Shown here: in pieces, positions 9,711 through 53,671 of the stretch | How the letters are laid out: the number at the start of each line of letters is the position of its first letter | Numbering within the stretch: position 1 is the stretch's first letter | Source of the DNA: a virus | IMG/VR virus record: IMGVR_UViG_3300037882_003535 | Coordinates: 7,810-71,809 of that record | Direction: 5' to 3' (one strand) | DNA length: 64,000 bases | Translations under genes and position numbers: made by a program | The notes under the pieces: generated by a model | The model's database searches: none | The model's input: the letters and a program-made list of their open reading frames with translations, nothing else | What the model was told of the DNA's origin: nothing

Positions 9711-10326
9711 AATATTCAGATTGTCGCCTTGTTTTCTGCCCTCGGTGAAGCTTGAGGATTGCGATCGGCTTCCTCGGAAACCTGGGGTGTATTATGCGAT
9801 CGAGCCTAGCAACCCATGGAAGCCGTTGTATATCGGGATGGCGGGGAACATGCGATCGCGGTGGCAAGATCACCACAAATACGATCGACTGGCGCGACGT
9901 GGGGCGGTGCGGTTGCATTACCGACCGACCTTCACTCGCTCCGGTGCTGAATATCTCGAATCCTGCGATATTCGGACTTTTGACCCACCGATGAACGATA
10001 AGTTTGAATCCTGCCCGATCGCTCCAGTGTTCTGGGTGCTCGATCGGATTTGGGACGGGGCGATCGCCTTGGGATTGTTTGGTGTGGGAGCGGTGCTGAT
10101 GTCGGCATTTACTCCATCGAAGTCAGTACCGTCGATCGAAGTGACTCAACTCGCTAATATCCGAAAAACGCCGAATGGCGTGGTGATTTGCGAGGTAAAG
10201 AAGGGCGATCGGTTGCCGCTGGTTTTGGCGTCGGGTGAGACTGAAGTGAAGGCGCGATCGAAGAGTTGGATTCTGGTGAAGGCTTGTGGTGTCAATGGTT
10301 TGATTTTTAAGGAGATGACGAAGTGA
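9703..10326 (+). CDS. GIY-YIG nuclease - TM - SH3b-like fusion
   Basis: PGVYY...LYIGMAGNMRSRW...E...PPMN (GIY-YIG), TM AIALGLFGVGAVLM, then ANIRKTPNG..VKKGD..WILV..G..GLI (SH3b-like). Confidence 0.75.
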   Translation: MSRIFRLSPCFLPSVKLEDCDRLPRKPGVYYAIEPSNPWKPLYIGMAGNMRSRWQDHHKYDRLARRGAVRLHYRPTFTRSGAEYLESCDIRTFDPPMNDKFESCPIAPVFWVLDRIWDGAIALGLFGVGAVLMSAFTPSKSVPSIEVTQLANIRKTPNGVVICEVKKGDRLPLVLASGETEVKARSKSWILVKACGVNGLIFKEMTK

Positions 10327-10589
10327 TTAATCGAATAATCGAAACGGGCAAGATGTCGGCGATCGGGGTGTGGAATTCTCCACCGATCGAACTGTTGACG
10401 GCTGCGGTGGTGGTTCCGGTGACGATCGTAGGCTCCTTTTGGATTCTCCAATGGGTTAGACCTGCAATGATTGTTTTGGGTGTTGTCGCAGGGGTTGTTT
10501 TTGGGGTGACTGCGATCGTTAAGATTATTTATTTATGGAGTTGCGATCGGCGTTATTTCGGTGCTGTGCGAAGAGATTTAAAACAATAA
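10323..10589 (+). CDS. small 2-TM membrane protein
   Basis: 88 aa, two hydrophobic helices. Confidence 0.7.
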   Translation: MINRIIETGKMSAIGVWNSPPIELLTAAVVVPVTIVGSFWILQWVRPAMIVLGVVAGVVFGVTAIVKIIYLWSCDRRYFGAVRRDLKQ

Positions 10590-10590
10590 G

Positions 10591-10923
10591 GTGTTACTTA
10601 TGGCGAAAGGCTTTGAGACTCGAACTGCTCACGATTCTTCTGTCTCCAGTATTTTTCAAATAATCCGACGGGGATGGCGTGACTGTGGTTCCAAGACCTG
10701 CATTGTGCTAATTCCTCGAACGAGCGATCGACTGGTGACGGAGGCGATCGAGATTTTCAAACAGGCTAACCCTGGGTTTGCTGCGGCCATTCAAGATCCG
10801 CCTCCAGGCATTCCCGGACGGATGACGGTTTCTATTTTTGAGATTGGTTCAATGGAACATCGATCGTGGCTGACTCATTCCACGTTTGGGAATACTGCTG
10901 ATATCGTTGATTGGTCGGACTGA
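10591..10923 (+). CDS. hypothetical protein
   Basis: 110 aa, last gene before the terminator. Confidence 0.65.
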   Translation: MLLMAKGFETRTAHDSSVSSIFQIIRRGWRDCGSKTCIVLIPRTSDRLVTEAIEIFKQANPGFAAAIQDPPPGIPGRMTVSIFEIGSMEHRSWLTHSTFGNTADIVDWSD

Positions 10924-10937
10924 TCGGGGCATAAGGT

Positions 10938-10973
10938 AAAAGCGATCGAGTAGAGAAGGCTCGATCGCTTTTT
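10938..10973 (+). terminator. rho-independent terminator
   Basis: AAAAGCGATCGAG-N9-CTCGATCGCTTTTT. Confidence 0.75.
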
Positions 10974-11007
10974 GTTCCATTTGAATTTATTGTGCTATTT
11001 TATACAT

Positions 11008-11081
11008 GGCGGGATAGAGCAGTCTGGTAGCTCGTGAGCCTCATAAGCTTAAGGTCGTAAGTTCAAATCTTACTCCCGCCT
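11008..11081 (+). tRNA. tRNA with anticodon CAT (Met or Ile2), CCA not encoded
   Basis: GGCGGGA/TCCCGCC acceptor, GAGC/GCTC D stem, TGAGC-CTCATAA-GCTTA anticodon arm, GTAAG-TTCAAAT-CTTAC T arm. Confidence 0.92.
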
Positions 11082-11084
11082 CTT

Positions 11085-11675
11085 TTAACCTCGTTGAATT
11101 AGTTGAAAGCCGTGGCCGTCGCGAGTTTTTCTTCCTGTTTTAACGACTCTCGTAATTTGACCACGGGACAAGAACTCTTGCTTCTCCGCCTGTCTAAGGC
11201 TGTCGTAAACATTGCCTGTTCGATCGCTCCGAATTTTAAACCGTACTCCACGAGTCCGATCGGGCTGTGCTTCAATTTGGCGTAGGACTGGTTTGGGTAG
11301 CAAGAAAGACAGGCGATCGATCGAAATATCCTTCAACCATTCGGGATGACGAGTGGCGAAAGTCACGAAATTTCGTTCAAGGATTCGATGGTGGCGCTTC
11401 CCTTTCCGTCGTTTGGTTTTGAGTAACCCACGGCCAATCCAGTCGTGAACCCGATCGCGATCGCATCCCAAGATTTGGGCTAGTCCAGTGCAGTTCCATC
11501 CGCCATCGATCGCAACCCGGCTTAAGCCCAGTCGCTTGACCTTCGTGAGAATTGCGTCATGAACCCGATCGGGCCATCGGCTACGAAACCAATTAATTAC
11601 CTCGTCAATCTCATCCTCACCCACATGCTCTTGAAGGAACTCTATTTCCTCCGCCGTCCAAGTCCGCGATCGCAT
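11085..11675 (-). CDS. multi-domain DNA-binding protein (Myb-like + HTH + NUMOD1-like)
   Basis: RTWTAEEIEFL, LAQILGCDRDRVHDWIGRG, GNVYDSLRQAEK..G.FQ. Confidence 0.7.
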   Translation of the reverse strand: MRSRTWTAEEIEFLQEHVGEDEIDEVINWFRSRWPDRVHDAILTKVKRLGLSRVAIDGGWNCTGLAQILGCDRDRVHDWIGRGLLKTKRRKGKRHHRILERNFVTFATRHPEWLKDISIDRLSFLLPKPVLRQIEAQPDRTRGVRFKIRSDRTGNVYDSLRQAEKQEFLSRGQITRVVKTGRKTRDGHGFQLIQRG

Positions 11676-11710
11676 AACATCAATTCTCCTCAATATTGTT
11701 TGAATCCATT

Positions 11711-11744
11711 AACCTGGACACCTCCAAAATGAAGTGTCCAGGTT
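11711..11744. terminator. intergenic hairpin
   Basis: AACCTGGACAC-N12-GTGTCCAGGTT. Confidence 0.5.
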
Positions 11745-11752
11745 GCTAGGCT

Positions 11753-12334
11753 TTACTGTCCAGGTGTGTCGTGAAGCTCTGCGATCGAGATGTCTAAACC
11801 CAGTCTGACCAAACCTAGAGCCATCCGATCTCGTCCCACCTGTGCCGCCTGATTGCCGACCATGGTCAGGTGATCAACCCATGTCCCAAACCGCCATTCC
11901 AAAATCGTTAGCTCTGCTCCAATCCTCCAAAGGGCTTTCGACTGAAGGGCATCTGTCACCCAATGGTAGACAGCGGTTTTGTCTCGGTTATCCCATGCCC
12001 ACGCTCCAATTTTACCGATCGTAAATAGGGTAAAGACGATTGAAAACATCAGCACACGTAAAACACTTCGATAAATACCGATCGCTGTTTCACTCACCAA
12101 TGCAGCGACAACCAACGAACCCACCGCCAAAACTGCCGTCTCTAATTGCTCCGATGCCTTTTCTGCTGCAATCTCCGCGTCCTTGGCAGTGGCGATGGTT
12201 TCCGCTTGCACTTCCAGAAAGGATTCGATCGCGGACTGCCAGTCCCGCGCAACCTTGTTTCTCCCGTTTTCTGCCAGGACTTTGATATCGTTGGCGGCGC
12301 AAAAGTCTTTCATTTCGCTGATTTCGTAGGTCAT
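11753..12334 (-). CDS. membrane-associated hypothetical protein
   Basis: 193 aa from ATG 12334; two hydrophobic segments. Confidence 0.65.
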   Translation of the reverse strand: MTYEISEMKDFCAANDIKVLAENGRNKVARDWQSAIESFLEVQAETIATAKDAEIAAEKASEQLETAVLAVGSLVVAALVSETAIGIYRSVLRVLMFSIVFTLFTIGKIGAWAWDNRDKTAVYHWVTDALQSKALWRIGAELTILEWRFGTWVDHLTMVGNQAAQVGRDRMALGLVRLGLDISIAELHDTPGQ

Positions 12335-12485
12335 GATAATTCTCAAAAAGGTTTGCTTCACTCCGTCTTGCAGGGCTTGTGACCTTCGATCGCGATTGAA
12401 AGGGTGGCGATCGGCGACGTTAAAGCATTTGAACATCTATGTTCACTCAGAGCGTTTTAGGGCACCGCCGACCCGCTTGAATAAT

Positions 12486-12590
12486 ATATTATTGCTTTTG
12501 AATTGATCTGTCAATTAATTATGTAAATTAATTAAGTCGATCTATTCGTGTAAAACAATTATTGACAGGATCGATCGGTTTCTGTAGGAT
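12486..12590. promoter_or_regulatory. divergent sigma70 promoters
   Basis: minus TTGACA(12514-12509)-17-TAATAT; plus TTGACA(12562)-17-TAGGAT. Confidence 0.65.
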
Positions 12591-12615
12591 GGTTGTGTTG
12601 TCTAGAGTTGGTGCT

Positions 12616-12942
12616 ATGCCGAAAGGAGTTCCTACAAGAATTGCAGAGTTATCCCCCAAAGCTCAGACTTGGTATGAGGCTCTTGAAGATAAGTCCGGTA
12701 CCGTTGCTGGATTAATTGAGTTGGCGGCGGCGGATGACTGGTTGTCTCTGCGGATCGTTGCTGCGTTAGAGCGGATGGAGCCTCCCGATCGTGGGAAGGC
12801 TGGGCGAAAGGTCAAAGTGTCGGACGATCGGCTTCGAGAGCTGGTTGCTAAAGGACTTTCCCCCATGGCGATCGGTCTTGAGGTTGGCTTGGGTCAGGCG
12901 CAGACGGTTAGACGGTTGAAAAAATTGAAAATAGAGAGTTGA
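12616..12942 (+). CDS. HTH DNA-binding protein
   Basis: C-terminal LRELVAKGLSPMAIGLEVGLGQAQTVRRLKK. Confidence 0.7.
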   Translation: MPKGVPTRIAELSPKAQTWYEALEDKSGTVAGLIELAAADDWLSLRIVAALERMEPPDRGKAGRKVKVSDDRLRELVAKGLSPMAIGLEVGLGQAQTVRRLKKLKIES

Positions 12943-15629: not shown

Positions 15630-17567
15630 GTGCGAATTAATGATGTCGATCGATTGATTGGGGAACTAGAGAAAGCGTTTGATTTGGCAGATGAGAGCGA
15701 TAGTAAGCCTGCGCTGCGATCGGCTTATATTGCGGATGTGATGGCGAATGGGGGAAAGGGTTTTTTAGAGCGTGTGCGGCGGTATGGGGCGACGGATAAG
15801 GGTGAACCGTTGCGGATGCCTCAATGGTTTTGTGAGTTGCTGGAGTTGTTGGGCGATTTTCGGATTCCGCATGTCCTGACTACGGGTTGTAGCCAATTGG
15901 GGAAGACACAATCGAACACTCTACTGCTAACGGATTTAGTCGTTCATGGGAAATTGAATAGCGCGTGGTTTTATGCGAGCCGATCGAGTCGAGATCTGAA
16001 TGTCCCGGAACAGTTTTACCCGGTGGTAAGCGAATGGCTCGATCGGTTGTCTACGGAGGTTGGCTCTTGCCTGGGGGCGGAGGCCGATCGGCAAAATATG
16101 TCGCGATACCAGATTGACGGGACGACGGCGATTTTTAGCTATGCCAACACCTCCAAGCCAACCCCTAGTCGATCGGGTTTGGCGTCGGCGGGTGGAGCTG
16201 CGGTGTCATTTACGGCGAATGTGAATTTCTATGAGGAACGATCGCAGTGGATTCCGGGAACGGCTGATCCGTTGATTCGGCGGTTGGATGCGTCATTGGT
16301 GCCGACTCGCCCCATTCGTGAACTGGGAACGCCGGGGGCAGGACAGGGTATTGAGGTGGAGGTCGATCGGGCTTCGCGGTGGTTTTATCCGCATTTTGAA
16401 TGCGAACACTGTGGTGAAGTGCAACCGCTTGACCCCAAGGGATGCCTCCTGAAGCGCTTCGATCGGCGGGATGTTACCGGAAAGACGATCGCGGGGTATT
16501 TCTCGGTTTCAGGCCGTCCCCATGAGTGGCACCATACGAATCCCAATGACCTGATCGAATCGGCTTATTTTGGATGCGCTCATTGTGGGACGAAGATTTC
16601 GGATGAGGTGCGCGATCGATCGTGGATGCAATGCCGGAAAACTGGGGTAACGCTGCGAAATTTCCTAGATTATTTCCCCGGCGACGACGGACGGATGAAG
16701 GTTGCGATCCATTTGTCGCCGCTGTGCCGCATGACACAAAACAATCTTGCTGCGGAATTGATTCGGGGTGGCATCGAGGCACTGAGACCGGAGGATTGGC
16801 AACAGCAGGGCTTGGGGCATCCGTCCGAAACCTCGACTACGAGTGTTTCGATCGACATGATTAAAGCCTCGATCGCTGCGACGGCTCCCGATCGCAAACC
16901 CACGGTGACGATCGCGGGTGTAGACAAAGGGCGTGGTGAGGATTGGTTATGGATTATGGACGTGCATTTTCCCGAGAATTGGGATCGGATGCCTGTGTCT
17001 GAGGCGATCGAGCAGGCGATTCGGGTGGTGAAGTTCGGGGCGGATGTGGTCCGATCGAGTATTCCTGAGTTGCTCGATCGGTATGGCGTTGGGTATGGGT
17101 TGATTGATAACGAACCCGATCGGGCTGATGCGTCGGCGCTCTGTGGGCGAACGGTGTTGGAGATGGCCAACCAGGTAGGCGGGCTGAAGGATGTGACGGC
17201 GAAGACGATCGTTAAAGACGGCGGAATTGAATACCCATGCTGGAACCTCCGAAATGAGAAGTTTTTGAAACAGGTTTTGACGAATTTCACCACGGTTTCA
17301 GAACTCGACCACCTCCCGCTCTATCGACTGCCTGATGAGTGGGATAAGTGGATTGGGGTGCAGACTGAACGATCGCCCGTGCGACATCTCACGGGGCCAT
17401 CCTGCGACCCGGACACAGGCACCTGGAAGCGTGGGGCGGGAAACATTGACGACCTGTATTATGCGGCATTATTTGCGGAGGCGGCATTGTATTTGTGGGT
17501 TCTGAATAAGCCTTTTGTCCAGTTCTCATTCAAGTCGGCTGGGCGACGCGAGACGACACGATTTTAA
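15630..17567 (+). CDS. terL: terminase large subunit (GpA-like)
   Basis: Walker A GCSQLGKT, FYEE, GTP, CxxC pairs (CEHC, CAHC), nuclease AGVDKG and DDLYYA. Confidence 0.85.
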   Translation: MRINDVDRLIGELEKAFDLADESDSKPALRSAYIADVMANGGKGFLERVRRYGATDKGEPLRMPQWFCELLELLGDFRIPHVLTTGCSQLGKTQSNTLLLTDLVVHGKLNSAWFYASRSSRDLNVPEQFYPVVSEWLDRLSTEVGSCLGAEADRQNMSRYQIDGTTAIFSYANTSKPTPSRSGLASAGGAAVSFTANVNFYEERSQWIPGTADPLIRRLDASLVPTRPIRELGTPGAGQGIEVEVDRASRWFYPHFECEHCGEVQPLDPKGCLLKRFDRRDVTGKTIAGYFSVSGRPHEWHHTNPNDLIESAYFGCAHCGTKISDEVRDRSWMQCRKTGVTLRNFLDYFPGDDGRMKVAIHLSPLCRMTQNNLAAELIRGGIEALRPEDWQQQGLGHPSETSTTSVSIDMIKASIAATAPDRKPTVTIAGVDKGRGEDWLWIMDVHFPENWDRMPVSEAIEQAIRVVKFGADVVRSSIPELLDRYGVGYGLIDNEPDRADASALCGRTVLEMANQVGGLKDVTAKTIVKDGGIEYPCWNLRNEKFLKQVLTNFTTVSELDHLPLYRLPDEWDKWIGVQTERSPVRHLTGPSCDPDTGTWKRGAGNIDDLYYAALFAEAALYLWVLNKPFVQFSFKSAGRRETTRF

Positions 17568-17594
17568 GGATTTCTGTAAAACCTGAAATAATGA

Positions 17595-17630
17595 AACAGC
17601 CGATCGGAGGGTATCTGCCGATCGGCTGTT
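17595..17630. terminator. HIP1-based hairpin between convergent genes
   Basis: AACAGCCGATCGG-N10-CCGATCGGCTGTT. Confidence 0.65.
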
Positions 17631-17684
17631 GTGTGTTCCCTGTTGATTTCTCGGCTAAAGAAACTCTGGTGAAATAATAGCACT

Positions 17685-18020
17685 TCAGTCGATCGAAAGT
17701 AAGGCTGTTGCCTTCGATATTGCACTCCGAAGCTTCTGATTTTCGATTGCTAGGCGCTGACACTCGATCGTTAGTCGATCGTTTTCGGATTGAAGTCGAT
17801 CGACGCTAATTGTAGCTTTGTCCAGTTCTTGGGGCCTGAATTTATTGACGAGTTGCAGGCGGTTTTTGAGGTTGCATTTTTGCAACATGTGGTGAACATG
17901 AGTTTCAACTGTCCGTTGCGTGATATGCAATTTGAGTGAAATATCGGAGTTTGAAAGCCCGTCAGAGAGAAGCCTCAAGACTCGTTTTTCTGCGGGTGAG
18001 ATTTCGTCAGGGTTTTTCAC
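17685..18020 (-). CDS. LuxR/GerE-type HTH + coiled-coil regulator
   Basis: ISPAEKRVLRLLSDGLSNSDISLKLHITQRTVETHVHHMLQK; start uncertain. Confidence 0.8.
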   Translation of the reverse strand: MKNPDEISPAEKRVLRLLSDGLSNSDISLKLHITQRTVETHVHHMLQKCNLKNRLQLVNKFRPQELDKATISVDRLQSENDRLTIECQRLAIENQKLRSAISKATALLSID

Positions 18021-18087
18021 GATCGGCGGTGGATATTTCCCACAGGGTTCCCGATCGGGCATCCTCCCAAAAATCCCCGATCGCACC

Positions 18088-20943
18088 ATGGCTCGACTGA
18101 TTCACCGAGGCGAATTCGCCAGTATTCGCAATAGCTTAATCATTCCGACCTATGGCGGAGGTCGCCTGACCCCACAGGATACGGCGTATCTGGAGCATGG
18201 TGGTGGGCGATATCATGCGCTGGATGCATTGCTTGATGTGTTTCGAGATGCCCATGCGGGAGCCGTAGCGCAGCAGCGGATTGGGGCCGTAATTGGGCGA
18301 GAGTGGAAGCTGAAAGAGGGCGGCGAGAGTGCGATCGATCTCAAGGCGCGCGATCTCTGCAAGGCGCAGCTCGACGCATTAGAAATCCCTTCCGCCTCCG
18401 ATGACGATAATGCGATCTATTCGCTGAATACTGGATTAGATGCGGCTTGCACCAATCTGCTGTGGGCGACGTTCTTTGGCATGTCTGCGAGTGAGGCAAT
18501 CTGGGATCAGCAAGGGAAAGAGGTGATTCTGCAAGATTTACGATCGCGGGATGTTCGGCGGTTTGCGTGGGTGGCGGGGGAGTCGAGTGGGTACAAATTG
18601 CGGCTACTGACTCGCGAAAATCCCTATGATGGGATCCCCGTCCCTGCACGTAAGTTTTTGATTCATCGTTTTTTCTCATTGCCGTTGGAAGATCCGTATG
18701 GTGTGGGGATTGCGGCGCGGTTGTTTTATCCCGTTTTTTATAAGCGCCATGCGATTAAGTTTTGGTTGATTTTTGCTGAGAAATGGGCCTCTCCGACCGC
18801 GATCGCGAAGCATCCGACGGATGCGAATGAGAAGCAGGTGGATGACCTGCTGGAGATGATTAACGCGATCGCCTCTGATACGGGGGTGGCCATTCCTGAT
18901 ACGGTATCGCTTGATTTCTTGAAGGCTCCGGGCGGTGCGATCGACTCCTACGAAGGGCTGAAAAAATTTTGCAATGAGGAAATCTCAAAGATTGTCATTG
19001 GGCAGACTGCGACGGTGGATCAGTCCCAAGGAGGCGGGAGTCGAGCAAGAGACCAAGTTGCTGACGGTATTCGGGTGGAACTGGCTAAATCTGATTCTGA
19101 CCTGCTCAGTGGGACCATTAACCGACTGCTCGCGTGGATGACTTGGGCGAACTTTGGTCCCGACGCGAAGGCTCCTCGACTATGGCGTGAGTTCCCCGAA
19201 TTAGAAAATAAGGTCAACCGATCGGAGGAAGCTACCGTAATTTCGACGCTGACGAATGCAGGATTCAAACCTAAAAAAGAATGGGTTGAAAATCGTCTTG
19301 ATGTTGAACTGGAAGACGTACAGGATGCGATCGCGCCGGAGAACCCAGACACTCCACCGGATATTGGTAAATTGCTCGGTGGTGAGCCTGCACCGGAGAA
19401 TCCAGAGGAAGCGATCGAGCCTCCTCCCGCTTTTGAAGAGGTGGAGTTTGGTGGGGTGTCGAAGGTTTTGAAGTGGAATGGGTTGGCGATCGGGCTTGAA
19501 GTAATGCCGGGTGAGTCTCGGTGGAAGGGGACGGGCCATGAGCGAACTCTGACGGCGGCTTATGGTCACATTCGTCTGCATCAAGGTAACGATGGTGAAG
19601 CATTGGATTGCTATGTATCGCCTGCGGTCTTGGATGAGGGTGGGAGCGATCGGATCTTCTTGGTGTCGCAGTTGGATGCGGCTGGGGCGTTTGATGAAGA
19701 GAAGTTGATGCTTGGGTATGCCGATGAGAAGGCGGCGCGATCGGCTTATCTGGCAGAAATGCCCAAACAGTTTTTCGGGGATATTGTCGAGCTTGAGTTG
19801 GAGGATTTAGAAGAATTTAAGCTCGATTTTGCGAAGACTCAGAAGAATTGCAAGAAGGGTTATTCGTGCGGGTTTAGCTGCATTCGGACAGCGTACAAGT
19901 GCAAGTCTCCCATGAAGGGGCAGGCTCGGAATTATGCTGATTATTTGGTTGGTGCGGTTAAGCGAATTGGTATTGAAAAGATGCCTCAACGCCACGCCTC
20001 GGATGCTCGCGCAATGGGCTTAGGGTTTGAGCATTCAACTACTGGGCAAGGAATTCTATTCCCGATCGCTCCGCTCTTGAAAGTTTCGGACAAACAGAAA
20101 GGTGAAGCGAAATTCACTCGAAGCTCAATTGAGAAACAGATTCTTAAACAAAAAGAACTCATTAAGAGTGAAACCGATCGCAAAGATCCGGATGCGAATC
20201 AAATCGCTAGAATGCAGCGAAGAATTAAGCGAATGCGCGATCGTGTCAAAGAATTGAAGGCAATAGAAGAAACGGGAGCCATCCCCCGATCGAGCCTTCG
20301 AGGGACTGAAATTGAAGTCCCGGCGAAACCCAAAGCGCCTAAATCAGACGTTCAAGCTCAAAGCGACAAAGTTAAAGCCAGTCTCGATCGTCAGGACGTT
20401 AAAGCCAAAAAAGAGGCTGATTTGGACCGACAGAAGCAGCAAGAGCAGAAGGACGCATTCGATCGATCTCAAGGTAAAGCAACCCGCGCTGAAGTGGTAG
20501 CGAAATTGCCTGATATTTTGAAGCCGTCTAAATTAACGAAGTCTTACGAAGACGCTCGTGATGAATGGTCTAAGGCTGTTCAGGACGGTTCTAAAACAAT
20601 GAAGGGAAAGAAGATTAAAGCTTCTGGCGATCGGGTGGAATATCTTGATTATGGGGGCGGTGTGGGCATTAGCTCAGTACAAGTCGGACGGACAACTGAG
20701 AAAGCTTTAATTGAAACGCCTACAGGTCAAATCATTGCCCGAATCCCGAAAAACATGAAGGCGACAGAGGCGGCTTTTGTTGCTTCTCAAGTATTGTCCA
20801 AGAATATCAAAGAAGGCTTGGCTAGTTCGGATAAAGGGACGAAAGCCGCTGCGGAAGAGTCGGTGCGATGGCTCCGTGATTTTGTGGACAAACGATCGAA
20901 AGGTCAACTGCTCGTCCCTCCGAAATACTCAGGAGAGGGCTAG
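18088..20943 (+). CDS. Mu gp29-like portal (DUF935) fused to an inorganic pyrophosphatase domain and a Cys-rich/basic C-terminal region
   Basis: PYGVG..ARLFYP..YK....FWLIFAEKW and CNEEISKIVIGQTAT (DUF935); YGHIR..GNDGEALDCYV and FDEEKLMLG (InPase). Confidence 0.85.
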   Translation: MARLIHRGEFASIRNSLIIPTYGGGRLTPQDTAYLEHGGGRYHALDALLDVFRDAHAGAVAQQRIGAVIGREWKLKEGGESAIDLKARDLCKAQLDALEIPSASDDDNAIYSLNTGLDAACTNLLWATFFGMSASEAIWDQQGKEVILQDLRSRDVRRFAWVAGESSGYKLRLLTRENPYDGIPVPARKFLIHRFFSLPLEDPYGVGIAARLFYPVFYKRHAIKFWLIFAEKWASPTAIAKHPTDANEKQVDDLLEMINAIASDTGVAIPDTVSLDFLKAPGGAIDSYEGLKKFCNEEISKIVIGQTATVDQSQGGGSRARDQVADGIRVELAKSDSDLLSGTINRLLAWMTWANFGPDAKAPRLWREFPELENKVNRSEEATVISTLTNAGFKPKKEWVENRLDVELEDVQDAIAPENPDTPPDIGKLLGGEPAPENPEEAIEPPPAFEEVEFGGVSKVLKWNGLAIGLEVMPGESRWKGTGHERTLTAAYGHIRLHQGNDGEALDCYVSPAVLDEGGSDRIFLVSQLDAAGAFDEEKLMLGYADEKAARSAYLAEMPKQFFGDIVELELEDLEEFKLDFAKTQKNCKKGYSCGFSCIRTAYKCKSPMKGQARNYADYLVGAVKRIGIEKMPQRHASDARAMGLGFEHSTTGQGILFPIAPLLKVSDKQKGEAKFTRSSIEKQILKQKELIKSETDRKDPDANQIARMQRRIKRMRDRVKELKAIEETGAIPRSSLRGTEIEVPAKPKAPKSDVQAQSDKVKASLDRQDVKAKKEADLDRQKQQEQKDAFDRSQGKATRAEVVAKLPDILKPSKLTKSYEDARDEWSKAVQDGSKTMKGKKIKASGDRVEYLDYGGGVGISSVQVGRTTEKALIETPTGQIIARIPKNMKATEAAFVASQVLSKNIKEGLASSDKGTKAAAEESVRWLRDFVDKRSKGQLLVPPKYSGEG

Positions 20944-20981
20944 CGATCGGGAACAATCCCGCAAACGCTAATCCCCTATTT

Positions 20982-21362
20982 ATGTCACAAGCTCTCCTCC
21001 CCGAACAATCCCAATTAGAAACCGCGATCGAGCGTCAGCTAATGCAGTCGTTAGGCGCTGCTGATTTTGCTGACGAGTTGCCCGCAAACCCCACGCCGGA
21101 ACAACTCGATAAAATGATTGTGCCGATGGTTCGGTACATCCTCCAAGCTGGCGAGAAGGGGTATAAGGACGGCATTGACGAGGTTACGGATAAGGATGGA
21201 AATCCCCCCAGTGCTGAGAATAACTGGCTTGTGGCCGATCGGGGGATTGAGGGGCTATTTATCGATCGGCGTCCGGGTGGCGATCGTACCTTTGAATTCG
21301 TTCTGGAAAACTCTGGGGATAATTGGGGCAAAAGTTTTCAGATGGTCTCTGGAGAGGCTTAA
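20982..21362 (+). CDS. hypothetical head-associated protein
   Basis: 126 aa between the portal and sigma factor; ADFADE motif after a short leader. Confidence 0.7.
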   Translation: MSQALLPEQSQLETAIERQLMQSLGAADFADELPANPTPEQLDKMIVPMVRYILQAGEKGYKDGIDEVTDKDGNPPSAENNWLVADRGIEGLFIDRRPGGDRTFEFVLENSGDNWGKSFQMVSGEA

Positions 21363-21369
21363 TCTATCC

Positions 21370-22098
21370 ATGACAACGTACAGCCAAAACTACGACCTAT
21401 TCTGCCAGTACCAAGCCGATCGCGATCGTAAGCTCCGAGACAAAATCTTTAAAATCAATGAAAATCTGATTCATTCTGTCATCAAAAAAATGACAAAGTT
21501 TGGATGGGAATATGATGACTTGTATCAGTGCGGGGCGATCGGTCTAGTGTTTGCGATCGATCGGTTTGACCCTAGCAACGGCGCGGCCTTCAGTTCCTAT
21601 GCCGTTCCTTATATTCGGGGTGAGATTTTGCGGTATTTCCGCGATCGGTTTGGACTTGTTAAACCTCCAAGACCGCTTTATGAACTCTATTGTCGTGGTC
21701 AGAAATTCATTGAAAAGCACCAACAGACGACGGGACGAATCCCTTCCGAAGTGACGATCGCCTGTGGGCTAGATGTCGATTTAGCCGAATGGCGGGATGC
21801 TGTTTTTGCAAATACTAAACCCGATTCTTTGGATGTGGCAATCCCTGATTCTCTACGAACTCGGATTGATTATGTCCCATCTCCGGAGAAAGAGGATATT
21901 CCTACGATTGAGATCGAAGAATTGTTGAATTCAATCGATCCAAAATTTTCGATGATTCTTCGCGAGATCTACTGGAAGAATCGCACGGCCAAGTCGATCG
22001 CTAAAGACTTTGGAGTTTGGCCAATGACGATTACCCGTTGGAAACAGTCGGCTTTGCGAAAGCTGCGGGTTGCGATCGGGAACCATCCCATAAATTAA
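21370..22098 (+). CDS. group-3 sigma-70 factor (SigF/SigJ-like)
   Basis: DLYQCGAIGLVFAIDRFDPSNGAAFSSYAVPYIRGEILRYFRD; region-4 HTH. Confidence 0.9.
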   Translation: MTTYSQNYDLFCQYQADRDRKLRDKIFKINENLIHSVIKKMTKFGWEYDDLYQCGAIGLVFAIDRFDPSNGAAFSSYAVPYIRGEILRYFRDRFGLVKPPRPLYELYCRGQKFIEKHQQTTGRIPSEVTIACGLDVDLAEWRDAVFANTKPDSLDVAIPDSLRTRIDYVPSPEKEDIPTIEIEELLNSIDPKFSMILREIYWKNRTAKSIAKDFGVWPMTITRWKQSALRKLRVAIGNHPIN

Positions 22099-22110
22099 GC
22101 TTTTAGCCCT

Positions 22111-23334
22111 ATGAATGTGCTCGATCGTCTTCCTCAATTGTGGGGAGAACCCATTGAATTTCGTGAACAGCCATCTGCTCTGGTTGAACTGTCCGATCGT
22201 GTGACGGCATTGGAGACGATCGACTTTGCTGGGAAGAAGGGATCGAAGGTTACTCAGAAAAAGAACTGTGTTAAAGGTTCAAGTTGCGGTTTTACTTGCA
22301 TTCGGGCTGGGGCTGTGTGTCGATCGGAGATGAAGGGTAAGGAAAAAGAGTTTGCGGGTTATCTGAAGAAATCAGCCGGGAGCACGAAAGGCAAGGCAAA
22401 GGTTGAACCTGTTGAAAAACCTCCCGTGGTGGCGAAGAAACCGAAGAAGGATGATATCCCTGATGTGCAGAAGGAGACGATCGCGGCTAAGGTCGATCGG
22501 AAGAGAGATGGAACCCATACGGATATCCCTGATGGAAAAATTCCGCCTAGTCCTAGGGTCGCTTATTCATGGAAAAAAGATGCGGGCGGAGTTGAGCGCT
22601 ACTACAGAAACGAAATCAGCCCAGATGGCAAACGAAATCTTATTGAAATATCTGGGCAAGAGCTTAAATCTGTCGTTAAAGCTGAATTTAACAGTGATTT
22701 CAAGCTAGCTAAGTTTGGGCGAGATGTCCGCCCTGAGTCTGAAACTAAAAAAATTGAAGAAAAAGTACGATCGAGTCAGATCTCTGCGATCAAGAAATTA
22801 TCAGGACTTTCTGAAGATGAGGCAAGAGCGGCTATTGACGCAATTAAAAAGTACTCAGAGCCTGAGGGTAGCGTTATTAGCTATGGCTCAATCAGAAATG
22901 TTCAGAGGGGAATTTTAAAGACAGCAGATGGGCGAGATCTGACGAAAGCAGAGCTATCCAAGGTTGAATCTACGACTAAATCAATTAATCGGTATCTTGA
23001 GAAGATGCCCTCTTTTGATGGGGTCGTTCATCGTGGAATGTCATTCGATTCAAAAGAGGATCGCGATGCATTTGTCTCGAAAATTTCAGGGGGGTACTCA
23101 TTGGAGGCAATGTCTAGCTTCTCAAGCTCAAAAAATACAGCAAAAGAGTTTGCCTCTCAATCTGGGTCCGGTGTTCTTTTTACTGTAAAGAATAAATCCG
23201 GCGTATCAATCAAGAGGCTTAGTGAAGTAGAAGAAGAGAATGAAGTTCTCGTACCGAAAGATACTAGATATAGAATTGTGGGGAAACCCAAGAAAGTAGC
23301 CAATGTTCTAGTCGTTGAAATGGAAGAATTCTAA
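22111..23334 (+). CDS. ADP-ribosyltransferase (R-S-E, exoenzyme/VIP2-like) with an N-terminal Cys-rich module
   Basis: VHRGM, MSSFSSS, EEENEVL catalytic motifs. Confidence 0.85.
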   Translation: MNVLDRLPQLWGEPIEFREQPSALVELSDRVTALETIDFAGKKGSKVTQKKNCVKGSSCGFTCIRAGAVCRSEMKGKEKEFAGYLKKSAGSTKGKAKVEPVEKPPVVAKKPKKDDIPDVQKETIAAKVDRKRDGTHTDIPDGKIPPSPRVAYSWKKDAGGVERYYRNEISPDGKRNLIEISGQELKSVVKAEFNSDFKLAKFGRDVRPESETKKIEEKVRSSQISAIKKLSGLSEDEARAAIDAIKKYSEPEGSVISYGSIRNVQRGILKTADGRDLTKAELSKVESTTKSINRYLEKMPSFDGVVHRGMSFDSKEDRDAFVSKISGGYSLEAMSSFSSSKNTAKEFASQSGSGVLFTVKNKSGVSIKRLSEVEEENEVLVPKDTRYRIVGKPKKVANVLVVEMEEF

Positions 23335-23549
23335 TGAAAAGAAAAAGTAATCGATTGGTTGACCGTCCTGAGACTGCCGCAATTAAACCGTTGCCTTCTG
23401 ACAAAAAGCTTGTAATAGAAGATCTAAATATGACCCTTGACGAGTATTTGAACTCCCTGGGATTAGATGATGACCCTTTGCCGAAAAACAATCACAGGCT
23501 TGAAATAGGGGCGGATGACAGCCCTACGGATCTCCCTGAGGATCTTTAG
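23334..23549 (+). CDS. small acidic protein coupled to the ART (candidate immunity)
   Basis: 71 aa, TAATG coupling. Confidence 0.55.
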   Translation: MKRKSNRLVDRPETAAIKPLPSDKKLVIEDLNMTLDEYLNSLGLDDDPLPKNNHRLEIGADDSPTDLPEDL

Positions 23550-23551
23550 CA

Positions 23552-23956
23552 ATGAAGCTTGATATCACGATCGAAAACCTCTCCATAACCCAAAAGACGA
23601 TCGCAGAACTTCGGGGACGGGTGCAGAACCCTGAACCTGCGATGCGATCGATCGGGGAATATTTCAAAAAACGGGTGGACGATCGGTTTGCGGCGGAAGG
23701 GCCGAATTGGAAAGCTCCAACCGATCGATATCGGCGATGGAAATCCAAAGCGGGCTATGGCGCGAAAACGCTGACACTTACCGGAGCGCTGCGGGCATCG
23801 ATCGTAGCGCAGACGACGGGCGATAGTGTTTCGATCGGAACTGATATTCCTTACGCCGAACATCAAAACCGAGTTCGCCCATTCATGGAAGCGGACGAAC
23901 GGGACCAACGGGAATTCACTGATATTTTATTTGACCATTACACAGGAAACGGCTGA
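23552..23956 (+). CDS. phage virion morphogenesis protein (Mu gpG-like)
   Basis: RFAAEGPNW, LTLTGALRASI, IGTDIPYAEHQ, RPFM. Confidence 0.85.
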   Translation: MKLDITIENLSITQKTIAELRGRVQNPEPAMRSIGEYFKKRVDDRFAAEGPNWKAPTDRYRRWKSKAGYGAKTLTLTGALRASIVAQTTGDSVSIGTDIPYAEHQNRVRPFMEADERDQREFTDILFDHYTGNG

Positions 23957-25200
23957 TGAGCGACATCTCGATCGAAATCCTCCCCATCGGGACTCACACC
24001 TCTGCCAGCGGCTATAAATTGGCGGCGACGGCGGCGGACCTGAAGGAACTGGTGGCGACCTTCGATCGGGAGGTCTTTCGTCCGCCGTTGATTATTTCTC
24101 ACGATACCAAGGGGTTGCAAGACGAGGCGATCGCAAACTCAGAGTTTGCCTTCGGAGTCCCTAAAGCGTTGAAGGTGGTGGGGAAGAAATTGAAGGCAAT
24201 CTTTGACCCAAAGGAAGTCTCTCCCGAATTCCAGCAATGGGTCAAGGATCGCAAACTCACCAGCGTCTCCAGTAGCCTGTACCTTCGCGATTCCCCCAGC
24301 AATCCAAACCCCGGCAAACTCACCCTGCGCCACATTGCTGCGCTGGGTAAAACGCCCCCCGCCATCAAGGGCATGGAATCTCTTCAAACTGCATTCAACT
24401 GCAACGAGTTTGAAGAGGGCGTTCAAATGTTCACCATTCAATTTAGTGCCCCAATGAGTACCACCGAAACCGCCGACTTTAGTTACTCCGATCGTCTGAT
24501 CTCAAACATTTTGCAACGACTTCGTGAGCATCTCATCGAAACAGCCGATCGCGAAACGGCGGATTCGATCGTGCCATTGGGTGAGCTTCAAAGCATTACC
24601 GAAATGGATATGTTTGGTGCTCGGGAAATCGATCGATTGCGCGATCGGATCTATGCGCTGGAAAGTTCAGAGCGATCGGAATCTGCGGGAATAATCCCGG
24701 CATATTCGGAAATTGAAGCAGAAGCTGTAAACGAACCTGAAATTGATATGGCAGATTTTGAAGAAAAAGAATCTCGGTTAGCCGAGATCGAAGAAAAGAT
24801 CGCCGCAGGGGAAACTCGTTTGCGGCGGACGGAATTCCTGGAATTTTGCGAGACGATCGCGAAGGGTAAAATCCTTCCCGGCGTTGCAAGCTTCGACGAC
24901 ATGGCTGATTTCATGGAGCATTTGCATTCCATTGAATCCAATGTTGATTTTGAAGAGCATGGCGGACCTACTCCGCTCGACTTCTTCAAGACGATGATCG
25001 GCAAACTTCCCAATGCGATCGAGTTTGGCGAATTGGCAGGTGGCAAACCTCCGACTGCTGTAGCTCCGACCGTGAATGGAACCTTTGACGCATCGGAACT
25101 TGACGCCGATCGAGCCATCCGAGACTATTGCGCTCAAAATGGCCTAGACCCTGAAACCGACTACGCGAGAGCAATGACAGCTCTAGGAATGACGTACTAA
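23956..25200 (+). CDS. Mu gpI-like prohead protease/scaffold
   Basis: IEILPIGTH, PLIISH, SVSSS, LRHIAALGKTPPAIKGM. Confidence 0.85.
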   Translation: MSDISIEILPIGTHTSASGYKLAATAADLKELVATFDREVFRPPLIISHDTKGLQDEAIANSEFAFGVPKALKVVGKKLKAIFDPKEVSPEFQQWVKDRKLTSVSSSLYLRDSPSNPNPGKLTLRHIAALGKTPPAIKGMESLQTAFNCNEFEEGVQMFTIQFSAPMSTTETADFSYSDRLISNILQRLREHLIETADRETADSIVPLGELQSITEMDMFGAREIDRLRDRIYALESSERSESAGIIPAYSEIEAEAVNEPEIDMADFEEKESRLAEIEEKIAAGETRLRRTEFLEFCETIAKGKILPGVASFDDMADFMEHLHSIESNVDFEEHGGPTPLDFFKTMIGKLPNAIEFGELAGGKPPTAVAPTVNGTFDASELDADRAIRDYCAQNGLDPETDYARAMTALGMTY

Positions 25201-25622: not shown

Positions 25623-26618
25623 ATGCCAGCAGATATCTCACTAACAGGTGCCCGAGCGACGGTATCGTTGCCTCTCACCAACCTTGCCCAAAAGTCCGCT
25701 CAAGCAACCTATGTGATGCGATCGCTGTATCCGTTGGCTGAAGTTGGCAGCTACGGCGGTGTCGTGATTCAGTTTGATGAAAGCGACTATGAATACGTTG
25801 ATGACACTCGCGCAGATGATGCAGCATTCGCCGAAATCCAGTCTGGATACGAAGGTAAGCCGTTCAAACTGAATACTAAAGGGCTACGCTACCGCGTCTC
25901 CGATAAACGCCGAAAAGAAATGGCGAACCTCAAGGTTAATTGGGGCGATATGGCGGTTAAATCCCTCATGTCTCGCGCAGGCTTGTACCACGAAATCGAG
26001 TGTGCGGTTAAAGCTACTACTTTCGCAAACTACGCTTCCACCAACCGAGTTACCTTAGCGGGGGGGAGTCGATTCAGTGATTCCGCCGTGGACCCTGAGC
26101 CGCTCCTTCGTGCAGGGAAAGACGCGATCGCAAACCAAATTGGTGTGGAGTCGAATGTCTGCGTCATGGGGCGCATGGTCTTCTCTGCCTTGGCTGCACG
26201 GTATTCGCGGACATTCACGAGCGCTGGTACCACTCCAGGCATCCGATCGCAGCTTACGAAAGCCGCTTTTGCTGATATTTACGGCTTCGAGCGTGTCGAG
26301 ATCTGTGATGCGATCGTGACTCGGAACGGAGTCAAGGGCAAGGCGTTCGGTAATCATCTGGTGATGGCTTACACGAACCCTGACGCCATCAATGGCAACA
26401 TCGTCACGTACCAGCCTCAGGGCGATATCTCCCCCATGGTGGGCGGAATGGGCTACACCTACGTCATGCAGGGCAACCCCTTGATGTATGAGCCTTGGGA
26501 AGATAAGAACACGAAAGCGACGGTATTCGACCTCGACTTCGATCGTCAGGTACAGAACACGGGTGTGAACGCCGCAGGTCAGATTACCTACGGATATCTG
26601 ATTGAAAACGCGGTGTAA
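25623..26618 (+). CDS. major capsid protein
   Basis: 331 aa; LTNLAQ, MGYTY motifs; synteny. Confidence 0.85.
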   Translation: MPADISLTGARATVSLPLTNLAQKSAQATYVMRSLYPLAEVGSYGGVVIQFDESDYEYVDDTRADDAAFAEIQSGYEGKPFKLNTKGLRYRVSDKRRKEMANLKVNWGDMAVKSLMSRAGLYHEIECAVKATTFANYASTNRVTLAGGSRFSDSAVDPEPLLRAGKDAIANQIGVESNVCVMGRMVFSALAARYSRTFTSAGTTPGIRSQLTKAAFADIYGFERVEICDAIVTRNGVKGKAFGNHLVMAYTNPDAINGNIVTYQPQGDISPMVGGMGYTYVMQGNPLMYEPWEDKNTKATVFDLDFDRQVQNTGVNAAGQITYGYLIENAV

Positions 26619-40758: not shown

Positions 40759-41186
40759 TTGAGAAACAATTGCAGGCAGGCGACAGCCTTCAGACTCTAT
40801 TGCTGGACCAACTCGACGACATCGACAAATACAACCCAAATTGGCGATCGATCGCAGACTCCGCAGGCATTAATCCTCTAAAGTCGCTCCCGATCGGTGA
40901 CATCGTTCAGATCCCAGAATTAGATCAATTGGTGACGCAGGCTGATGGACTGCTCGGGGGCGTTTCGGCGGGGTTGAACCAAGCTAAAGGGCAAATCTCC
41001 GAGGTCTTTAATCAAGTCGCCCAGTATCTCCCACCTGGATATGCCGCAGAAGCCCAGAAGCTATTAGGAGAGGTGAACGGAGCCTTTGGGCAGGTGGAGA
41101 CGATCCTGGGGCAAGGTAAGGCGGTGCTCGGGAAAGCTCGGGACTATAAGGGCGAAGTCGCTAAATTAGTGGATTGGTTACTGTGA
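40755..41186 (+). CDS. LysM-like baseplate protein (gpX-like)
   Basis: QAGDSLQTL...WRSIADSAGINPLKSLPIGDIVQIP. Confidence 0.7.
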   Translation: MIEKQLQAGDSLQTLLLDQLDDIDKYNPNWRSIADSAGINPLKSLPIGDIVQIPELDQLVTQADGLLGGVSAGLNQAKGQISEVFNQVAQYLPPGYAAEAQKLLGEVNGAFGQVETILGQGKAVLGKARDYKGEVAKLVDWLL

Positions 41187-52863: not shown

Positions 52864-52975
52864 AGTTTTAAGAAAGATTTGTCTTTTTAGGTGGATCCTA
52901 GGGGTTTTCTCTATTCTTTTTTTGCATTAAGAAATGCTATATAGGCATCATCCCCAGTTTCTTAATCTTCTTTTT

Positions 52976-53671
52976 ATGATTTGTGATTTTTTGAGCTTGC
53001 AGGCGTATCGGGCGAGTGGGCGAGTGGATCAGGAACGGCAGTGTAAGGAGGCTCTGGTCAAGGCGAATATCGGGCTGGTGATTAAGATCGCAGCGACGTT
53101 TCACAAGTCGTCGGAGGCTCCGATCGCTGACCTGAAGCAGGAAGGTGCAATCGGCCTTTTGAAGGCGATCGACGGCTTTGACCCGAGTAAAGGAATGAAG
53201 TTTTCGAGCTATGCGGTCCCGAAAATTCGGGGGGAGATTTTGCATTACCTGCGCGATCGTGCGCCATTGATGCGGGTACCCCGACCTTACTGGGATGCCT
53301 ATAAGGCTGTGGCGGCGGATCAGAAAAGCCTTGAGAAACAGGGATATATGCTGTCGATGAAGTCGATCGCATTAATGAAGGGGAAAACGGAGGAGGAGTG
53401 GCGAGAAATTTCGATCGCTTGCACGGCGAGAATCTCGGATGCGGCGATCAATCTGCCTGCGGGGAGATCGGAAGAGTCGGTGGATGCGGGCGAGGTCTTT
53501 GGGGCGTTGTCAAAGTTGTCGGATCGAGATCGATCGATTTTTGTCAGCTTTGCAATGAGGTCAGAGGGGCGGTCTGTGGCGGATATCGCGGTGCATTATG
53601 GCGAGTCGGAGACAGATGTTCAGGATGCGATCGATCGATCGCGGCAAATTCTCAAAGCTCAACTGGTATAA
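52976..53671 (+). CDS. group-3 sigma-70 factor (SigF/SigJ-like), second copy
   Basis: DLKQEGAIGLLKAIDGFDPSKGMKFSSYAVPKIRGEILHYLRD. Confidence 0.9.
   Translation: MICDFLSLQAYRASGRVDQERQCKEALVKANIGLVIKIAATFHKSSEAPIADLKQEGAIGLLKAIDGFDPSKGMKFSSYAVPKIRGEILHYLRDRAPLMRVPRPYWDAYKAVAADQKSLEKQGYMLSMKSIALMKGKTEEEWREISIACTARISDAAINLPAGRSEESVDAGEVFGALSKLSDRDRSIFVSFAMRSEGRSVADIAVHYGESETDVQDAIDRSRQILKAQLV

Follow-up and report, generated by a model that had tools for sequence, protein, structure and literature searches.

We describe a polyvalent portal protein encoded in a 64,000-nucleotide stretch of viral DNA (hereafter the window), which comprises bases 7810-71809 of a 71,809-bp virus record (IMG/VR record IMGVR_UViG_3300037882_003535). 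The gene, at 18088..20943 on the plus strand, joins in one chain a Mu-type portal core, a predicted inorganic pyrophosphatase (InPase) domain, a four-cysteine junction module and a C-terminal domain that we call cargo X. The same module recurs in a second gene, ORF4, which is predicted to encode an ADP-ribosyltransferase (ART) and lies where relatives carry a gene that joins the MuF head protein to the module and a cargo. In the comparisons below, the module marks the point at which a conserved anchor, be it portal, MuF or a short leader, gives way to an exchangeable cargo cassette, and such cassettes move between two slots, the portal and ORF4. We think it reasonably probable that the portal loads its InPase domain, module and cargo X into the head, that the head protease releases them, and that they are injected with the DNA, the ART protein being a second cargo.

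A portal-borne InPase domain and the idea of its injection are not new and are already in print. Passages of Iyer et al. (2017, PMC5512222) describe InPase versions fused to a portal domain, with gp124 of Burkholderia phage BcepF1 (BcepF1.124) as an example, and infer that they are injected. New here are the junction module, the exchange of cargo between two slots and the ART gene in the MuF slot.

Domain anatomy and continuity of the portal gene

The reading frame is open over 17920..20943 on the plus strand, and the ATG at 18088 gives a product of 951 residues whose start agrees with the N terminus of the nearest relative, P0002. The parts of the gene are as follows.

18088..20943, plus strand: whole polyvalent portal gene, 951 amino acids plus stop (open reading frame, start as in P0002, contigs continuous over the junctions)
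18088..19317, plus strand: portal core, residues 1-410, with Portal_Mu at 48-405 and phrog_113 (portal) at E 1.5e-79
19312..19461, plus strand: acidic Pro/Glu-rich linker, residues 409-458, isoelectric point (pI) 4.05
19462..19815, plus strand: predicted InPase domain, residues 459-576, Pfam PF18823
19795..20028, plus strand: junction module, residues 570-647, with LDFA motif, Lys-rich stretch, four-Cys knuckle and two helices
20029..20940, plus strand: cargo X, residues 648-951, basic and mostly helical, with a C-terminal alpha/beta domain
20572..20874, plus strand: hypervariable block in cargo X, residues 829-929

An initial annotation, made from the letters of the window, had read this frame as a DUF935 portal with an InPase domain, a cysteine-rich module and a lysine-rich tail, and each of these elements is borne out. 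Pfam matches Portal_Mu/DUF935 (PF06074) with E 6.4e-84 and 282.6 bits (cut-off 23.9) over model positions 4-335 of 336, and PF18823 with E 3.3e-27 and 95.4 bits (cut-off 26.8) over model positions 12-132 of 135, each match exceeding its curated cut-off by a wide margin. The cysteines at residues 588, 594, 598 and 605 belong to a pattern that a profile recovers in 620 proteins, so they are no chance feature, and residues 648-951 contain 14% lysine. Beyond the portal core the chain extends for ~540 residues, made up of linker, InPase domain, module and cargo X, and the linker terminates in the motif VEFG (residues 452-455, nucleotides 19441-19452) immediately ahead of the InPase domain. The InPase acidic motifs D-x-E-A-L-D and FDE-x-K are retained in all 11 aligned portal-InPase proteins, the second acid of the motif being Glu, not Asp, in this lineage. 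The gene lies between a TerL-like gene upstream and gpG-like, protease/scaffold and capsid genes downstream. With portal, InPase, module and cargo in one chain, its product is a polyvalent protein in the sense of the passages of Iyer et al. (2017) that define the class, namely at least two functionally unrelated domains in a single chain encoded among virion or packaging genes.

As the source is a metagenome-derived virus record, an assembly or frameshift artefact, or a gene in decay, has to be considered, and the initial annotation had named an artefact of assembly as a way in which it could be wrong. We regard this explanation as extremely improbable. Contigs of two runs from two other studies (X1 and X2), ~94% identical to the window, are unbroken over 18900-20571 and cross every domain junction; the only length change there is a paired -1/+1 at 19628/19630, which keeps the frame. 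A whole-query protein search gave 36 matches, of which 13 combine Portal_Mu and InPase by precomputed Pfam annotation, our own record included, leaving twelve other proteins alike; when 18 of the 36 were scanned again with Pfam, both domains were found in seven. Isolate genomes are among the sources, namely Nostoc sp. CENA67 / Amazonocrinis and Nostoc sp. ATCC 43529, and two of the relatives, P0002 and P0003, have the module at the same position. Of 80 genome loci, 9 have a portal match that extends to query residue 578 or further and so covers the whole InPase domain, whose last residue is 576; all nine have cyanobacterial titles.

Two side observations concern the same region. The paired -1/+1 at 19628-19630 is seen in relatives from all four runs compared and alters one or two InPase residues. 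In an uncultured cyanobacterium (locus L007, 9323-10984) a portal of 503 residues and an InPase-module-GNAT protein of 554 residues lie in separate, overlapping frames; either the fusion is split in this locus or a frameshift is involved. Four further module-bearing genes follow there.

The junction module and the exchange of cargo

The module has a hydrophobic-[DE]-F-[AR] motif, then about ten Lys-rich residues and the knuckle C-x5-C-G-x2-C-I-x5-C, which is followed by an amphipathic helix ending in Y-A-x-[YW]-L. In the portal these elements are LDFA at residues 579-582 and cysteines C588, C594, C598 and C605, with a pI of 9.3 for the module as a whole. The four invariant cysteines suggest that it binds zinc. 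In an AlphaFold2 (AF2) model, residues 589-647 have a predicted local distance difference test (pLDDT) score above 90 and form a Cys-bearing beta-hairpin with two helices. The portal module and the N-terminal region of ORF4 are identical at 20 of 36 residues (BLASTP E 5e-12).

The module does not seem to have been described before. No Pfam or NCBIfam model matches it, and searches of the ESM Atlas with residues 570-650 and 625-951 gave no usable feature matches, all query-normalised TM (template modelling) scores being below 0.5. A description was not found in the literature searched, which took in the texts, as distinct from the supplements and figures, of Iyer et al. (2017, PMC5512222) and Jamet et al. 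(2017, PMC5576092); the word ‘cysteine’ is absent from both texts, their supplementary files lying outside that count.

Searched against 1.84 billion cluster representatives, a 60-position profile of the module gives 620 proteins at E<=0.001, of which 126 reach E<=1e-10. Statistics were drawn from the 147 proteins newly found among the best 150 of the 620. The first module begins no more than 120 residues from the N terminus in 110 of these 147, and at least two modules are present in 14; one protein of 3,641 residues has six. Pfam, run on 100 module proteins, found Portal_Mu in six, MuF in two, ART families in five and DUF3626 in four, with other families represented once each, and left 79 with no family. 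Two proteins, P0053 and P0057, have the order MuF-module-cargo, and in a third, P0052, the module stands N-terminal to a homologue of the protease/scaffold protein of the window (40% identity, E 7e-77). P0052 also has an ADFA motif between its module and its protease part.

Near related portals, the profile detects module-bearing genes in 10 of 80 genome loci (nine cyanobacterial by title and one Caulobacterales), in 9 of 80 viral loci and in 6 of 81 further loci, and in most of these the module is within the portal itself or in the next gene. The module is nonetheless rare, and is no general cyanobacterial feature: a random sample of whole genomes from the phylum of a Nostoc genome yielded it in 1 of 201, the centre genome itself, and a like sample from the phylum of a Pelomonas genome in none of 201. 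In three Nostocales prophages (L011, L017 and L021, the last at 10040-12833) large DUF3626 proteins directly follow the portal and have the module at residues ~120-170. A DUF3626-annotated protein is also encoded by cultured Nodularia phages (L243, 7671-9548), where no module was detected.

What lies behind the module changes from relative to relative. The initial annotation had proposed a survey of portal homologues for variable C-terminal fusions, and such variation is evident: over residues 1-646 P0002 and the portal share 81% identity, but past this point they are unrelated, the P0002 tail having an HExxH motif. Among proteins of 171-546 residues, the portal tail (residues 640-951) has one relative, P0050, with 69% identity across 98% of the query. 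P0050 stands alone as a protein: its N-terminal 91 residues share 73% identity with the ORF4 leader and module, and cargo X follows them (61-69% identity). Because P0050 joins both, the cargo that rides on the portal here sits behind an ORF4-type leader elsewhere.

The leader and module of ORF4 are common to five proteins at 73-87% identity, and the six members of this family, ORF4 included, carry four types of cargo: ART (ORF4 and P0046), cargo X (P0050), an HExxH domain (P0058) and a fourth type (P0043 and P0055, put in one class from their alignment). The cargo of P0058 and the tail of P0002 are distantly paralogous (26% identity, E 7e-19); the two proteins, each from a 67,090-bp contig, probably belong to the same phage. 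A conserved N-terminal part with unrelated C termini, the trait that Jamet et al. (2017) give for MuF toxins, is thus found in both the portal and the ORF4 leader family. At the DNA level the two module copies of the window are 74% identical over aligned columns. A long direct repeat between them, as a substrate for recombination, was sought and not found.

In an AF2 model of the portal tail (residues 560-951, mean pLDDT 74.1), cargo X is predicted to consist of a helical hairpin and a long helix, with an alpha/beta domain at its C terminus. Searches of Pfam (E<=5), NCBIfam and PDB sequences gave nothing meaningful, and with the tail model of residues 560-951 there were no matches at E<=0.001 from Foldseek against the PDB or in BFVD. 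The best result of a wide VIA-align search, Z 7.4, concerned the helical hairpin only and was set aside, being under the tool's noise level for helical models. In calling this tail an effector, the initial annotation went further than the evidence allows: no enzyme family or fold is recognised in cargo X.

One part of cargo X varies between strains. The 303 nucleotides at 20572-20874 are replaced in the X1 and X2 contigs by a diverged stretch of the same length, with flanks ~94% identical. The corresponding residues, 829-929, share 41-43% identity with P0050, whereas most of the remaining sequence shares 80-93% and two segments of 30 residues share 63-70%. The block looks like a site of local diversifying change or a mini-cassette. 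A general Pfam scan of the main open reading frames (ORFs) of the window returned no reverse-transcriptase family.

ORF4 and the MuF slot

The initial annotation had overlooked the module in the ART gene, the place of that gene in the MuF slot and the exchangeable nature of the portal tail. This second cargo gene encodes a leader (residues 1-32), the module (33-90, nucleotides 22207-22380), a Lys/Pro-rich linker, a middle region and an ART domain at ~303-395. Pfam matches ART (PF01129) at 34.7 bits (cut-off 22.3) and ADPrib_exo_Tox (PF03496) at 27.4 bits (cut-off 23.4), and in alignments with solved ARTs the HRG, SSFSSS and ENE of ORF4 fall at the R, S-x-S and E-x-E positions, albeit with weak PDB E-values (0.016-0.56). 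The C-terminal domain is accordingly predicted to be an ADP-ribosyltransferase of the R-S-E type. An AF2 model of ORF4, built from seven sequences, has a mean pLDDT of 42.8 and is unusable. The genes around the portal are listed below.

15630-17567: gpA-type large terminase (TerL-like), from Pfam and PHROG scans
20982..21362, plus strand: small head-module gene, 126 amino acids, conserved
21370..22098, plus strand: sigma-70 family gene inside the head module, Sigma70_r2 E 8.6e-15, phrog_351 E 4.6e-47
22111..23334, plus strand: ORF4, predicted ADP-ribosyltransferase gene, 407 amino acids, Pfam ART and ADPrib_exo_Tox
23334-23549: 71-amino-acid ORF after the ART gene, no family match
23552..23956, plus strand: gpG-like virion morphogenesis gene, Phage_tail_S E 1.8e-11
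23956..25200, plus strand: gpI/Z-like head protease/scaffold gene, phrog_976 (‘head maturation protease’) E 2.8e-53, candidate processing enzyme
25623..26618, plus strand: major head protein, phrog_1005 E 7.3e-49, homologue in L003 at E 2.9e-135

The initial annotation recognised no MuF gene between the portal and gpG, and quoted portal, MuF, G, I as the usual Mu order. Both statements hold. The Mu record gives portal, MuF, G, I/Z, T, and here a six-frame search of the 71,809-bp record, which has direct terminal repeats and a completeness rating of 100%, finds nothing for PF04233 or PF06152 at E<=10. A profile of six cyanobacterial MuF proteins, compared by hhalign, aligned with ORF4 and the portal tail over the Cys module only, and had no match in the ORF at 20982-21362; ORF4 is without an N-terminal MuF domain by the two Pfam families and by this six-member profile. 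Other Portal_Mu virus records of at least 35 kb, picked by size from 80 viral loci, have a MuF match above cut-off in 20 of 20 cases, and a separate MuF gene lies downstream of the portal in the cyanobacterial relatives L003, L009, L010 and L016. The Mu-type head of this phage appears to have lost MuF.

In L003 the order is a homologue of the ORF at 20982-21362, a MuF-module-C39 peptidase gene, gpG, scaffold and capsid protein. Since the MuF-module-C39 gene lies between that ORF homologue and gpG, ORF4 can be said to occupy the MuF slot. The idea that its leader is a remnant of the MuF C terminus was tried and is unsupported, as the local alignment scores with six MuF proteins were matched by 3 to 228 of 500 shuffles.

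The 126-residue ORF at 20982..21362 has no Pfam or PHROG match. It has homologues (E ~1e-31) in two related loci: in L003 the homologue immediately precedes the MuF fusion gene, and in L163 it immediately follows the portal. We regard it as a candidate accessory of the cargo system. A scan for promoters and terminators over 17500-24000 gave a number of sites not above that in shuffles, and no RNA data set was listed as containing the stretch.

Loading and release, known systems and phage context

We propose a model in which the Portal_Mu core would form a ring of 12 subunits with the C-terminal extension pointing into the capsid, so that each head would start with 12 copies of every extra domain and need no MuF carrier. 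Together the 12 extensions would amount to ~0.7 MDa, built into every procapsid. The gpI-like head protease would probably cut the extension, likely sites being VEFG, before the InPase domain, and LDFA, before the Cys knuckle. These cuts would leave free InPase and free module plus cargo X in the head, which would exit with the DNA at infection. The ART protein, composed of leader, module and ART, would be the second cargo, in the slot where relatives have MuF-module-cargo.

Several lines of evidence bear on the direction of the extension and on its cleavage. The barrel of the portal of E217, a PB1-like Pseudomonas phage, projects into the head, and because of this we take portal C termini to face the head interior. 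In the portal papers of E217 and of Pa193, likewise a PB1-like Pseudomonas phage, residues 97-528 and 94-528 of 765, respectively, were modelled, and residues 529-765 are encoded but without density. This portion includes the InPase match: our InPase region aligns with residues 637-731 of chain 9b41_L, which is gp19, the portal of Pa193 (E 3.4e-10). The word ‘pyrophosphatase’ has no occurrence in the Pa193 and E217 cryo-electron microscopy papers. In Mu, the virion structure lacks the C-terminal 124 residues of gp29, which the relevant passage attributes to protease I (PMC11915804), and the extension would probably be cut in a like manner. In 117 of 173 modules the first Cys is preceded, at a distance of 6-18 residues, by a [DE][FY]A-like motif. 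A motif of this kind, hydrophobic-[DE]-[FY]-small, occurs 52 times in 15 gpI/Z-like scaffold homologues (~0.9 per 100 residues), against 7 times in the 6,390 residues of ten other proteins of the window; the protease/scaffold protein at 23956..25200 has four copies, and those of the portal, VEFG and LDFA, fall exactly at two domain borders.

Other observations weigh against this model. The motif counts are post hoc, the motif having been devised after the module was seen. It is present in the tails of only 46 of 163 portals (0.23 per 100 residues, ~2x background), and in Mu there is none in gp29 and one in gpI, leaving the Mu precedent without this motif. The putative protease role of 23956..25200 draws on its PHROG label, and no Pfam family, that of the Mu I protein included, matches it. 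Cargo X resembles a basic helical protein rather than an enzyme and could be structural. In L010 a single module-bearing gene was detected, which speaks against simple docking of module to module. The classical pyrophosphatase signature has Asp at the second acid, where this lineage has Glu. A sequence search of the PDB with the InPase region found a phage portal only and no classical pyrophosphatase, and the predicted pyrophosphatase activity leans on the remote homology reported by Pfam and by Iyer et al.

For the module, we can envisage a release signal, a docking element or a nucleic-acid-binding knuckle. Release or addressing is a real possibility, short of being probable. More speculatively, the ~60-residue module may be a general addressing-and-release tag for proteins inside Mu-type phage heads, made up of a hydrophobic-[DE]-F-[AG] motif, a Lys-rich stretch, the four-Cys knuckle and a helix. 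Domains behind it, with the portal, MuF, the protease/scaffold or a short leader as anchor, would be loaded into the procapsid, then released through cleavage of the motif by the head protease, and would enter the cell together with the DNA; we put this forward tentatively. If true, it would make head cargo freely exchangeable and MuF dispensable.

It is also conceivable that the extension stays on the portal ring and works within the capsid instead of being injected, as a basic, DNA-contacting crown that organises or retains DNA or nucleates the scaffold, the module being a structural zinc knuckle that perhaps binds nucleic acid. Such a crown would suit the basic and largely helical character of module and cargo X (pI 9.3 and 9.8) and the want of an enzyme family or fold for the latter. 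The C-terminal barrel of the E217 portal contacts DNA in the head, and SPP1 gp7, a MuF protein, is cited as a DNA-binding protein with procapsid targeting. However, near relatives swap the tail for unrelated domains (zincin-like HExxH, ParB-like, ART), and it also exists as a free-standing protein, unlike a conserved structural part. The strain-level hypervariable block in the tail and the presence of an enzyme-type InPase domain with conserved acidic residues also speak against a crown, which we consider unlikely.

A further alternative has the extra domains acting late in the producing cell: they would simply be made in one chain with the portal, be removed ahead of assembly or in its course, and stay outside the particle. 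Placement among late genes fits this as well as it fits packaging, and the linker is long, acidic and probably flexible. Yet a 1:1 fusion to a protein present at 12 copies per particle would dose a cytoplasmic enzyme poorly, and the module also links cargos to two internal proteins of the head, MuF and the protease/scaffold. In print, in the passages concerned, fusions to portal or MuF are read as packaged. We find action in the producing cell quite improbable. Loading into the head, release and injection remain our preferred reading. The proposal of the initial annotation, in which effector domains enter the head on the portal and are later injected, is consistent with all of the context evidence, while no result proves it, and in its essentials it had been anticipated by the passages of Iyer et al. 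(2017, PMC5512222) on InPase-portal fusions and their possible injection. For the InPase domain the same source proposes either the degradation of nucleotides induced by infection or the clearing of pyrophosphate in aid of early transcription or replication.

The portals of BcepF1, Pa193 and E217 are alike in having a portal followed by a polyvalent-type InPase domain; the portal described here differs in that its core is of the Portal_Mu family and its InPase domain is followed by the module and an exchangeable cargo of 304 residues. Passages of Iyer et al. (2017) and of a 2022 follow-up (PMC9503650) report PBECR, 2H, Nudix and ART domains fused to MuF or portal domains. MuF polymorphic toxins and polyvalent proteins of temperate phages (Zhang et al. 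2012, PMC3482391; Jamet et al. 2017; Iyer et al. 2017) likewise combine a head-anchored N-terminal part with variable C-terminal cargo (ART, peptidases) in a gene beside the portal, whereas the anchors here are the portal itself and a 32-residue leader, in a genome with no MuF match. MuF toxins have a cognate immunity gene as their neighbour; here the ART gene is followed by the 71-residue ORF at 23334-23549, which matches no family. Mu gp29 belongs to the same portal family, and the order portal, (MuF), G, I, capsid matches; the Mu tail, however, is short and without an enzyme domain, Mu has MuF (gp30), and gp29 lacks a motif of the VEFG/LDFA type.

More distant parallels exist outside the Mu-like phages. 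T4 Alt, in the accounts consulted, is an ADP-ribosyltransferase that is loaded into the head with other proteins and delivered with the DNA. T4 internal proteins have a short N-terminal capsid-targeting sequence, which the head protease removes. There is no sequence relation to T4, the presumed signal here is leader plus four-Cys module, and one cargo is covalently part of the portal. In polymorphic toxins, a short conserved element, such as VENN in CdiA, stands between the trunk and the toxin cassettes, and recombination swaps cassettes there. The module differs from VENN/CdiA in sequence, in its phage-head context and in its likely zinc-knuckle fold.

Portal-borne enzymes are a published idea, and the literature examined, in the parts that deal with them, holds no experimental test. 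The lineage amounts to a clean natural experiment: it has two cargo slots, at least four cargos that are unrelated to one another and a junction element that stays constant, and MuF is present in some relatives and missing from others. Should the module prove to be a loading or release signal, it would account for the diversification of injected phage proteins and would provide a simple tag to place chosen proteins in capsids; if it is only a structural knuckle, what remains is a further portal of the portal-InPase kind. A passage of Iyer et al. (2017, PMC5512222) holds that polyvalent proteins are few in cyanobacteria, and the finding qualifies this as well.

The portal gene belongs to a ~72-kb temperate myovirus-type phage of filamentous cyanobacteria. 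Beyond the capsid gene lie Mu gp36/gp37-like and contractile-tail genes, a tyrosine integrase and a second sigma factor. The octamer GCGATCGC, which we take to be the cyanobacterial HIP1 repeat, has 40 copies in the window, against 2.3 expected from shuffles, and this excess, together with the cyanobacterial titles of related loci, is the basis for assigning a filamentous cyanobacterial host. The second sigma-70 family gene lies at 52934-53671. On the minus strand, a LuxR/GerE-type regulator at 17685-18089 has a start that overlaps the portal start codon by 2 nucleotides. Farther downstream, the gpD-like baseplate hub at 41174-43702 has a C-terminal M23 peptidase domain (E 1e-22) and is probably a cell-wall-cutting tail tip.

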